A stretch of 64,000 nt of DNA from Escherichia coli (GTDB taxonomy: Bacteria > Pseudomonadota > Gammaproteobacteria > Enterobacterales > Enterobacteriaceae). Under the pieces are notes generated by a model, which saw nothing but the letters and a program-made list of their open reading frames with translations, had not been told where the DNA came from and searched no databases. The stretch lies in NCBI RefSeq assembly GCF_030013205.1, contig NZ_CP122648.1; one strand, 5' to 3'. Below are positions 60,503 through 63,001 of this stretch, piece by piece; position 1 is the first letter of the stretch; each line of letters opens with the position of its first letter. Position numbers and translations under genes: made by a program.

Positions 60503-60510
60503 TGTTGTGG

Positions 60511-61417
60511 TCAACTAAAACTGGCCTCCGCGTTAGAGTTTTTCCAGTATCGGTTTTCTGATTCGTTTGGTGGTAACCCACCATTATATTCGTGCGGTCT
60601 TAGTGCGCTGTAATATCCAACGATATAGTCCGTTATTGCGTGAGCTGCATCGCTGAAGCTTACATAGCCCGTCGCTGGCACCCATTCGTTCTTCAGACTC
60701 CTGAAGAAGCGCTCCATTGGGCTGTTATCCCAGCAGTTTCCACGCCGACTCATACTCTGCCTGATCCGGTATCGCCACAGTAACTGCCGGAACTGCCTGC
60801 TCGTATAATGACTGCCTTGATCGCCTGGAACATCACCCCGACGGGCTTACCACGGGTTTCCCATGCCATTTCCAGTGCTTTCATGGTAAGCCTGCTGTCC
60901 GGCGAGAACGACATGGCCCAGCCCACTGGTTTTCTTGCGAACAGGTCGAGAACAACGGCGAGGTACGCCCAGCGCTTACCCGTCCAGATATAGGTCACAT
61001 CACCGCACCACACCTGATTTGGTTCCGTTACGGCGAACTGTCGCTCAAGATGATTCGGGATAGCAACGTGCTCATGACCGCCACGCTTATACCGGTGAGT
61101 CGGCTGCTGGCAACTGACCAGCCCCAGCTCTTTCATGAGTCTGCCAGCAAGCCAGTGCCCCATCTGGTAGCCTCTCCGGGTTGCCATTGTGGCGATGCTT
61201 CTTGCTCCGGCAGAGCCGTGGCTGATGCCATGCAGTTCAAGTACCTGGCTGCGTAATACAGCCCGTCTGCCGTCTGGTTTTTCAGGACGGTTTTTCCAGT
61301 ATCTGTATCTGCTGCGATGAACCCCGAACACATGGCAGAGTGTGACCACAGGATAATGCGCTCTGAGTTTCCTGATTATCGAGAACTGTTCAGGGAGTCT
61401 GACATCAAGAGCGCGGT
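60511..61417 (-). pseudogene. insO: IS911 orfB (transposase), apparently frameshifted and 5'-separated from orfA by IS30
   Basis: Two out-of-frame ORFs (199 aa and 80 aa); the first diverges after ...GKPVGVMF from the canonical OrfB as I remember it; the second matches the OrfB C-terminus ([17 protein letters not shown]...). Confidence 0.65.
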
Positions 61418-62638
61418 TGTAGATTCAATTGGTCAACGCAACAGTTATGTGAAAACATGGGGTTGCGGAGGTTTTTTGAATGAGACGAACATTTACAGCA
61501 GAGGAAAAAGCCTCTGTTTTTGAACTATGGAAGAACGGAACAGGCTTCAGTGAAATAGCGAATATCCTGGGTTCAAAACCCGGAACGATCTTCACTATGT
61601 TAAGGGATACTGGCGGCATAAAACCCCATGAGCATAAGCGGGCTGTAGCTCACCTGACACTGTCTGAGCGCGAGGAGATACGAGCTGGTTTGTCAGCCAA
61701 AATGAGCATTCGTGCGATAGCTACTGCGCTGAATCGCAGTCCTTCGACGATCTCACGTGAAGTTCAGCGTAATCGGGGCAGACGCTATTACAAAGCTGTT
61801 GATGCTAATAACCGAGCCAACAGAATGGCGAAAAGGCCAAAACCGTGCTTACTGGATCAAAATTTACCATTGCGAAAGCTTGTTCTGGAAAAGCTGGAGA
61901 TGAAATGGTCTCCAGAGCAAATATCAGGATGGTTAAGGCGAACAAAACCACGTCAAAAAACGCTGCGAATATCACCTGAGACAATTTATAAAACGCTGTA
62001 CTTTCGTAGCCGTGAAGCGCTACACCACCTGAATATACAGCATCTGCGACGGTCGCATAGCCTTCGCCATGGCAGGCGTCATACCCGCAAAGGCGAAAGA
62101 GGTACGATTAACATAGTGAACGGAACACCAATTCACGAACGTTCCCGAAATATCGATAACAGACGCTCTCTGGGGCATTGGGAGGGCGATTTAGTCTCAG
62201 GTACAAAAAACTCTCATATAGCCACACTTGTAGACCGAAAATCACGTTATACGATCATCCTTAGACTCAGGGGCAAAGATTCTGTCTCAGTAAATCAGGC
62301 TCTTACCGACAAATTCCTGAGTTTACCGTCAGAACTCAGAAAATCACTGACATGGGACAGAGGAATGGAACTGGCCAGACATCTAGAATTTACTGTCAGC
62401 ACCGGCGTTAAAGTTTACTTCTGCGATCCTCAGAGTCCTTGGCAGCGGGGAACAAATGAGAACACAAATGGGCTAATTCGGCAGTACTTTCCTAAAAAGA
62501 CATGTCTTGCCCAATATACTCAACATGAACTAGATCTGGTTGCTGCTCAGCTAAACAACAGACCGAGAAAGACACTGAAGTTCAAAACACCGAAAGAGAT
62601 AATTGAAAGGGGTGTTGCATTGACAGATTGAATCTACA
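61418..62638 (+). mobile_element. IS30, complete 1221-bp copy with 2-bp target duplication
   Basis: Ends TGTAGATTCAATTGGTCAACGCAACAG ... CTGTTGCATTGACAGATTGAATCTACA; GT at 61416-61417 and 62639-62640. Confidence 0.9.
61480..62631 (+). CDS. insI: IS30 transposase
   Basis: 383-aa ORF, canonical IS30 transposase. Confidence 0.92.
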
Positions 62639-62904
62639 GTAGCCTTTTTTAATATTTCATTCTCCATTTCAATGCGTTGTAGCTTTTTCCTCAGCTTACG
62701 TATTTCGATTTGTTCTGGTGTTATCGGAGAGGCTTTTGGTGTTTTGCCCTGACGCTCATCACGCAGTTGTTTGACCCATCTTGTCATTGTGGAAAGGCCA
62801 ACATCCATAGCTTTGGCGGCATCTGCCACCGTGTATGTCTGGTCAACAACCAGTTGAGCGGATTCGCGTTTAAACTCTGCGCTAAAATTTCTTTTTTTCA
62901 TTGG
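62551..62904 (-). pseudogene. insN: IS911 orfA (InsN), 3' end replaced by read-through into IS30
   Basis: [21 protein letters not shown]...EILKKAT then sequence diverges at the IS30 junction (62638/62639). Confidence 0.7.
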
Positions 62905-63001
62905 AGCACCTGTGTTGTTCTGAGGTGAGCATATCACCTCTGTTCAGGTGGCCAAATTCAGTAAACCACTTCACCACTTCAGAGCAGACGAGACAAAAAG
63001 A

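Follow-up and report, generated by a model that had tools for sequence, protein, structure and literature searches.

An intact IS30 nested in a broken IS911/ISEc52-type element at the fecE-proximal edge of the Escherichia coli fec island

IS30 is an insertion sequence (IS) that transposes by copy-out-paste-in, favours nearly palindromic hot-spot targets and generates 2-bp duplications, and IS911 in Escherichia coli K-12 is known to be interrupted by it (PMC9333248). One such nested structure is annotated in K-12 as IS911B::IS30D, and the complete E. coli genomes that contain it number in the hundreds. Here we describe its counterpart in a 64-kb stretch of E. coli DNA (contig NZ_CP122648.1; hereafter the window, to which all coordinates refer), where we are highly confident that an intact IS30 is nested in an already broken, minus-strand IS911/ISEc52-type element at the fecE-proximal edge of the fec island; no evidence contradicting this anatomy was encountered. 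Element boundaries were read directly over 59800-64000, both elements were compared with annotated K-12 and RefSeq copies, and junctions, sites and regions were searched in 5426 complete genomes, to which all genome counts below refer. The mechanism is that of a textbook IS30 hot-spot insertion, and the finding is correct but ordinary: taken as it stands it carries little weight, and it serves mainly to mark a lineage and to document how this edge of the fec island was assembled. Some novelty attaches only to a side observation, made in related genomes and not in the window, of a recurrent IS30 hot spot together with a probable 3-bp scar of IS30 loss.

The IS30 copy occupies 61418-62638 on the plus strand (1221 bp), as delimited by direct reading and a repeat finder. 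Its left and right terminal inverted repeats (IRL, 61418-61443; IRR, 62613-62638), TGTAGATTCAATTGGTCAACGCAACA and TGTTGCATTGACAGATTGAATCTACA, are 26 nt long and 88% complementary, and they form the longest inverted pair returned by the repeat finder. The sole long open reading frame (ORF) of the element (61480-62631, plus strand) is open throughout and encodes a 383-aa transposase with Pfam matches to HTH_38 (E=1.7e-23) and the rve integrase core (E=4e-14). Compared with the K-12 copies, the element differs from IS30A at 3 and from IS30D at 2 of its 1221 positions (99.8% identity to each), and none of these differences falls within the inverted repeats. A length of about 1221 bp, imperfect 26-bp repeats, a 383-aa DDE transposase, a 2-bp duplication and near-identity to annotated copies together identify it as IS30. 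Its transposase carries R52H (codon 52, window 61632-61634) relative to both K-12 copies, and DNA-identical R52H alleles are annotated as WP_001254876.1 in strains W13-16 and CP55_Sichuan. Because its ends are intact and its transposase gene is open, this IS30 is presumably still mobile.

The element is bordered by GT at 61416-61417 and again at 62639-62640, read directly and corresponding to AC on the IS911 strand. Deleting IS30 and one GT in silico yields ...AAAAAAGGCTACCGCGCTC..., as alignment shows for uninterrupted ISEc52 and IS911-like copies, in which AC is present once at this site. Since the healed junction matches these uninterrupted relatives, the two GT dinucleotides represent a genuine 2-bp IS30 target duplication. 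A first-pass annotation made from the letters of the window had proposed exactly this, a 1221-bp IS30 with an intact transposase frame and a GT duplication at these positions, and direct reading, the repeat finder and the healed-junction alignment all bear it out.

The interrupted host element lies on the minus strand in two segments, a 915-bp 3' segment (60503-61417) containing its IRR (60503-60538) and a split orfB, and a 335-bp 5' segment (62639-62973) containing its IRL (62938-62973) and orfA. Healed, with 62973..62641 joined to 61417..60503 and IS30 and one AC left out, it is a 1248-bp IS3-family element with the tips TGAAGTGG... (IRL) and TGTTGTGG... (IRR), and its IRR end agrees to the base with the K-12 IS911B-1 annotation. 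In keeping with IS911, it measures about 1250 bp, has inverted repeats of about 36 bp that end TG...CA, and encodes an orfA with a helix-turn-helix and an orfB with an rve domain that overlap at an A-AAA-AAG -1 frameshift site (slippery heptamer at 62650-62644, minus strand, read directly); Pfam returned HTH_Tnp_1 in orfA and rve, rve_3 and rve_2 in the orfB pieces. IS30 sits 5 nt 3' of this heptamer. A functional transposase gene is no longer present: orfA, which starts at 62901, now runs on into IS30 and is parted by it from orfB, so that the OrfAB transposase is no longer made, and orfB is itself 1 bp short. Alignment with ISEc52, IS911-like copies and the K-12 pieces places this lesion, a 1-bp deletion accompanied by an A>G change, at about 60825/60826. 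The intact ISEc52 sequence is GTGATGTTCCACAGCGATCAAGG where the window has GTGATGTTCCA-GGCGATCAAGG, and at the lesion intact elements read TTCCACAGCGATCAAGG and the window TTCCA-GGCGATCAAGG. The deletion splits orfB into ORFs at 60750-61349 and 60511-60753 (minus strand), and a frameshift after ...GVMF, suspected in the first-pass annotation, is thus real when judged against intact ISEc52. Lying just 5' of the HSDQGSHY motif, the deletion inactivates the host element independently of IS30. The same 1-bp deletion is found in K-12 and in O26:H11.

Naming the host IS911, as had been done at first, is right as to type and not as to its whole length. The healed element is 95.2% identical to a RefSeq copy labelled IS911 and 96.5% identical to ISEc52, and under the ISfinder isoform rule copies sharing at least 95% nucleotide identity are isoforms. 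Its 5' 335 bp are 97.9% identical to the IS911-labelled copy and 91% to ISEc52, whereas over the 3' 913 bp identity is higher to ISEc52 (98.5%) than to IS911 (94.2%), with the switch from IS911-like to ISEc52-like sequence near element position 480-500. On these identities the host would be a mosaic of IS911 and ISEc52, not pure IS911. Mutation of IS911 was considered as the source of the TGTTGTGG tip of the IRR and of the TTTA variant in the IRL, and was rejected, the same bases being present in intact ISEc52 and in K-12 IS911A. In a 6.9-kb comparison with K-12 from fecA to IS911, 24 of the 38 K-12-private substitutions cluster in a 226-bp tract of orfB (61023-61248), a putative recombination patch between IS911-type and ISEc52-type sequence.

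Many complete E. coli chromosomes, among them those of porcine enterotoxigenic E. coli, O139:H1 W13-16 and the type strain ATCC 11775, carry the 3.5-kb region comprising these elements with 100% identity, which argues that the nested arrangement is not due to chance; at least 80% of the region is held by 324 of the 5426 genomes, and the window is nearly collinear with W13-16. Exact 34-nt probes, which seed on the exact junction only, detected the IS911/IS30 junction in the orientation of the window in 983 of 5426 genomes and in the opposite orientation in 1110 of 5426. Queries of 64 and 76 nt were dropped, as partial matches and junctions with IS30 in the opposite orientation distorted their counts. 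The same site has also been used in other elements of the family. K-12 IS911A carries IS30A at the same AC in opposite orientation, IS600 in CP55_Sichuan carries IS30 at the homologous AC (AAAAAAAGCA[AC]-IS30-[AC]AGCG), and ISEc31, about 69% identical to the host element, reads GGCT[AC]-IS30-[AC]CGCG. As a proxy for the published 24-bp IS30 consensus we used the coordinates of the lambda hot spot (LHS, ~33290), a natural IS30 target described by Olasz et al. (cited in PMC9333248). Within a 201-bp lambda stretch (33200-33400, both strands) LHS is the best match to the IS911 site, agreeing at 14 of 26 positions at 33290. We propose, tentatively and at somewhat less than even odds, that the dinucleotide 5 nt 3' of A-AAA-AAG is an IS30 hot spot common to ISEc31, IS600 and, in both orientations, IS911/ISEc52, and that later loss of IS30 from it leaves an ACA scar. 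If confirmed, this would show on a small scale how one insertion sequence can disable another time and again.

The scar became apparent among alleles without IS30. A probe consisting of the healed element and 150 bp of the adjoining yjhV gene gave, as its best 60 matches, the chromosomes of O26:H11, O103, O111 and related Shiga toxin-producing E. coli, in which fecE, yjhV and an IS911-like element are contiguous without IS30 and the fec-linked locus is 99.7-99.9% identical to the window. Uninterrupted copies, which the first-pass annotation had suggested seeking in other isolates, therefore exist in O26:H11, O103 and O111, but these are not in a pristine state: compared with the GGCTACCGCG of the healed window they have GGCTACAACCGCG, a gain of ACA exactly at the IS30 site (~7060-7075 of the compared stretch in O26:H11 11368, equivalent to window 61417/62639). 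Over 1.8 kb, a single substitution is the only difference besides these 3 bp. If exactly 1220 bp between two CTAC repeats, GG[CTAC]TGTAG...AAT[CTAC]AACCGCG, are taken out of the window, the ACA form results, and we consider it likely that the additional ACA is the scar of IS30 loss through a 1220-bp deletion between these microhomologies. Near-IS-length deletions between 2-4-bp microhomologies have been documented for IS30 and ISApl1, and the IS-excision enhancer (IEE) stimulates excision of IS30-family elements (bioRxiv 10.1101/2023.06.07.543989); IEE has been reported chiefly in O157:H7, O26:H11, O103:H2 and O111:H8 (PMC9943667).

A corresponding pair of alleles exists at a second locus. Beside the same tyrosine recombinase, O55:H7 2013C-4465 carries ISEc31::IS30 with an AC duplication, and O157:H7 carries ISEc31 with ACA and no IS30, with 0 mismatches between the two over 2026 bp; O157:H7 is considered to descend from the O55:H7 lineage (PMC9413875). 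Across the genome set we counted 653 ACA sites, the ACA sequence being carried by 404 genomes, and IS30 was found at either AC of the ACA site in none of the 653, compared with about 2,000 genomes in which IS30 occupies the unscarred site. The notion that ACA is unique to the fec locus was rejected, as it is also present in apparently intact elements, namely ISEc31 and an element of pO157 that is 90% identical to the host element. This occurrence weakened the idea of a scar, which the O55:H7 and O157:H7 pair restored, and loss of IS30 may also account for the ACA in these two elements, which seem to carry it natively. The scar amounts to one extra in-frame codon. That it immunises the host IS against re-insertion of IS30 is speculative. 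If confirmed as such, the additional ACA would be a natural marker, easy to score, of IS30 excision in enterohaemorrhagic E. coli (EHEC) lineages.

The IS30-less IS911 beside yjhV-fecE in O26:H11, O103 and O111 could in principle be the pre-insertion ancestor of the window, being the same locus at 99.7-99.9% identity without IS30. We regard this as highly improbable. The IS30-less strains carry GGCTACAACCGCG in place of the healed GGCTACCGCG, and the junctions of the window cannot arise by a 2-bp-duplicating insertion of IS30 into the ACA form; no IS30 insertion with flanks that rebuild the ACA form was found in the 5426 genomes, and the same allele pair recurs at the unrelated ISEc31 locus of O55:H7 and O157:H7. 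A midpoint argument on three sequences, the window, O26 and K-12, of which K-12 has the longest branch, likewise places a loss of IS30 on the O26 branch. On junction logic and the second allele pair, the ACA allele was thus rejected as the ancestral state. ACA might instead be a short patch copied from elements that carry it natively, the pO157 element or ISEc31, and not an excision scar. Both elements appear intact, and between about -57 and +45 of the site the pO157-type element is identical to the window, so that conversion over a short tract would not show in any other way. Such copying would, however, require two independent conversions of at most 100 bp at the same site in two loci and does not account for ISEc31::IS30 junctions without ACA, whereas deletions of the kind needed for a scar are documented for IS30 and ISApl1 (bioRxiv 10.1101/2023.06.07.543989). 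We therefore consider a copied patch unlikely and retain excision of IS30 as the preferred origin of the ACA alleles.

For the window itself, we infer that the minus-strand IS911/ISEc52-type element would already have been without its target duplication before IS30 arrived, and that the rearrangement which removed the duplication would also have taken the 5' ~140 codons of a dehydrogenase-like neighbour gene. IS30 would then have entered by hot-spot-targeted copy-out-paste-in, duplicating the target AC (plus-strand GT). The R52H substitution in the transposase, absent from both K-12 copies, weighs against the presumed mobility of this IS30, and the visibly mosaic host, together with known IS30-mediated chimeras, allows arrival by recombination instead of fresh insertion. 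If it arrived by recombination, the source of IS30 would have been a different IS911::IS30 composite, from which homologous recombination or gene conversion brought it in along with the GT duplication. The alternation of IS911-like and ISEc52-like sequence within the host, which changes over near element position 480-500, the 24 substitutions clustered at 61023-61248 between K-12 IS911B and the window, the 99.7% identity of the K-12 5' part to an IS911 at yjhE in another strain, and the existence of a chimera of IS911-like sequence, IS30 and ISEc31 in strain 20KM2300 all speak for such a route. It concerns only the way in which IS30 arrived and not the structure, however, and vertical inheritance would account just as well for the occurrence of this junction in about 983 genomes; the window contains no IS911::IS30 donor copy. 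We give arrival by recombination a rather low probability, and hot-spot insertion remains our preferred account. A broader alternative concerns the fec genes, which had been taken as consistent with an IS-bracketed acquired cassette. That reading fits: IS debris does bound the fec module (51860-60502) on both sides in the window and in K-12, and the homology shared by the two strains (99.4%) begins at 51860 and stops at the IS911 end. The module, however, is not a composite transposon. Such movement was considered because the module is IS-bounded in both strains, which would suit a composite transposon moving as a unit, but the flanking elements are of different IS types, both are fragments, and the one on the fecI side varies between strains; the window holds no second IS911 and no pair of like ISs sharing a duplication, and no flanking direct repeats were seen around the module. 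Movement of fec with its flanking ISs as a composite transposon is thus scarcely credible.

Strain 20KM2300 (~560-1900 of the compared stretch) has IS30 between the orfB-side halves of an inverted IS911-like element and ISEc31, an arrangement that looks like the product of recombination between two IS30 copies.

At its left tip the host element ends at 62973, where K-12 IS911A, IS911B and ISEc52 each begin with a single TGAAGTGG and where homology between the window and K-12 also ends. At 62974-62981, outside the element, its terminal 8 bp (TGAAGTGG on the IS strand) occur once more in tandem, so the extent first assigned to the composite, 60503-62981, is correct at its left coordinate and 8 bp too far at its right. 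This duplication of the tip is shared with O26:H11 and absent from K-12 IS911A, IS911B and ISEc52; it possibly arose when an IS911-type element inserted into the tip of a copy already present and recombination followed. A 3-bp IS911 target duplication was not found around the host element, GAC at the IRR facing TGG at the IRL (CTC if the 8-bp copy is counted), and the K-12 copy likewise has none, as would be expected after a secondary rearrangement.

The neighbouring minus-strand gene, which abuts the host IRR and is cut off by it, is reduced to a 3' remnant, as had been recognised from the letters alone. The remnant comprises about 110 codons (60171-60500) of an NAD(P)-binding dehydrogenase-like gene and is the equivalent of yjhV. 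It was identified through homologues, Pfam giving no match for the remnant or for a 208-aa flanking ORF: the remnant (60171-60503, minus strand) aligns with residues 140-181 of a 181-aa Raoultella protein, which has a Rossmann-type NAD-binding N-terminus, and also matches residues 46-150 of a 153-aa relative. The same bases are annotated as pseudogene yjhV in K-12. We estimate about 250 codons for the full-length gene, of which the N-terminal ~139 codons were searched for and found nowhere in the window. The loss of this 5' part, combined with that of the IS911 target duplication, indicates an IS-adjacent deletion or recombination and not a simple insertion into the neighbour gene. Beyond the remnant, on the plus strand, lies fecE (58848-59615), the last gene of the fec operon, identified as an ORF and annotated as fecE in the identical region of W13-16; the composite therefore does sit downstream of fecE, as stated from the start.

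On the opposite side of the nested elements is a hypothetical plus-strand gene (63002-63574) that has no Pfam match and is annotated with a DUF8453 domain in some genomes; in O26:H11 it is interrupted by IS600 at about 63102-63106. Over 63002-64000 this gene is followed by a minus-strand AbiJ-NTD4-domain gene that extends past the end of the window. In O26:H11 a primase-helicase gene comes next, which suggests a P4-like satellite or defence-island remnant beyond the IS.

On the fecI side, an IS3-family orfB C-terminal fragment of 36 codons (…WYNNRRLLERQGHIPPAEAEKAYYASIGNDDLAA; 51672-51782, plus strand) lies 80 bp before the start of the fec homology between K-12 and the window. K-12 has IS1F on this side, whereas the fragment in the window is unrelated; it was considered as a second IS911 and rejected, having no similarity to the healed element. 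A copy of IS1 that is 99.2% identical to K-12 IS1F is present at 11916-12687, far from fec, and hence the fecI side is not IS1-bounded in this strain. Three features distinguish the window from W13-16. About 320 bp between fimE and fimA (38386-38708) are inverted relative to the otherwise identical W13-16, this being the fim phase-variation switch in the opposite orientation. A 1331-bp IS2 at 41632-42962, with InsC/InsD-type ORFs and the ends TAGACTGGCCCC... and ...GGGGCAAATCCA, is not in W13-16, and at the place corresponding to window ~48573-48581 W13-16 has an IS66 insertion (tnpA/B/C) that splits a DUF932 gene, which is whole in the window.

Among described elements, the intact plasmid copies of ISEc52 in enterobacteria share both tips and the frameshift window with the host element; they are uninterrupted and have an intact orfB, whereas the host element is interrupted and closer to IS911 in its 5' third. 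Lambda LHS has the left half tAAAAnnGGCnA in common with the IS911 site, and both are targets other than inverted repeats with a 2-bp central duplication, the overall resemblance being modest. With respect to the ACA alleles of the related isolates, the loss of ISApl1 from Tn6330 and IS30-associated excision (Snesrud 2018; Szabo 1999) involve near-IS-length microhomology deletions like those of the O26 and O157 alleles, and IEE-stimulated IS excision in EHEC is comparable in that these IS30-less alleles occur in serotypes reported to have IEE. K-12 IS911A::IS30A in prophage CP4-6 (270206-272190) has IS30 at the same AC, again with duplication of these 2 bp, and its IRL variant TGAAGTGGTTTA is also that of the window. 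It differs in having IS30 in opposite orientation, in being ISEc52-like throughout and 3'-truncated, and in residing at another locus; as orientation, host element and locus all differ, it represents an independent insertion.

The closest relative is K-12 MG1655 IS911B::IS30D (insO/insI3/insM; NC_000913.3 4507125-4509801, KpLE2), which lies beside yjhV-fecE and hence at the same locus as the window. The comparison with K-12 that the first-pass annotation had called for reveals that K-12 has this IS30 too, with dinucleotide and orientation unchanged, together with a common IRR/yjhV junction and the common 1-bp orfB deletion, and the K-12 annotation (IS911B / IS30D / IS600 / IS911B-1 / yjhV / fecE) corresponds to the window at base level. 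In K-12, unlike the window, nucleotides 1-327 of IS600, inverted, stand in place of 120 bp of IS911 at the left end of IS30 (window 61298-61417), joined to IS30 exactly at the slippery site of IS600 itself (ATATTAAAAAAAGCAAC directly followed by IS30), and one A is missing from the slippery run. This replacement beside IS30 bears out the earlier suggestion that the intact IS30 is a source of further rearrangement. K-12 IS911B also has the canonical IS911 IRL (CACA) where the window has TTTA, is flanked on the left by yjhE where the window has the DUF8453-type gene, and has no 8-bp tip duplication. Because its 5' IS911 part and yjhE left flank match an IS911 at yjhE of another strain (99.7%), K-12 has also recombined within the element. 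The window is apparently the simpler, earlier form and K-12 the derived one. By keeping a simpler precursor of the more scrambled IS911B/IS30D/IS600 arrangement, the window allows the events in K-12 to be ordered: in the simplest history, IS600 would have inserted into IS911 orfB, after which an IS30-adjacent deletion would have extended to the homologous hot spot in IS600.

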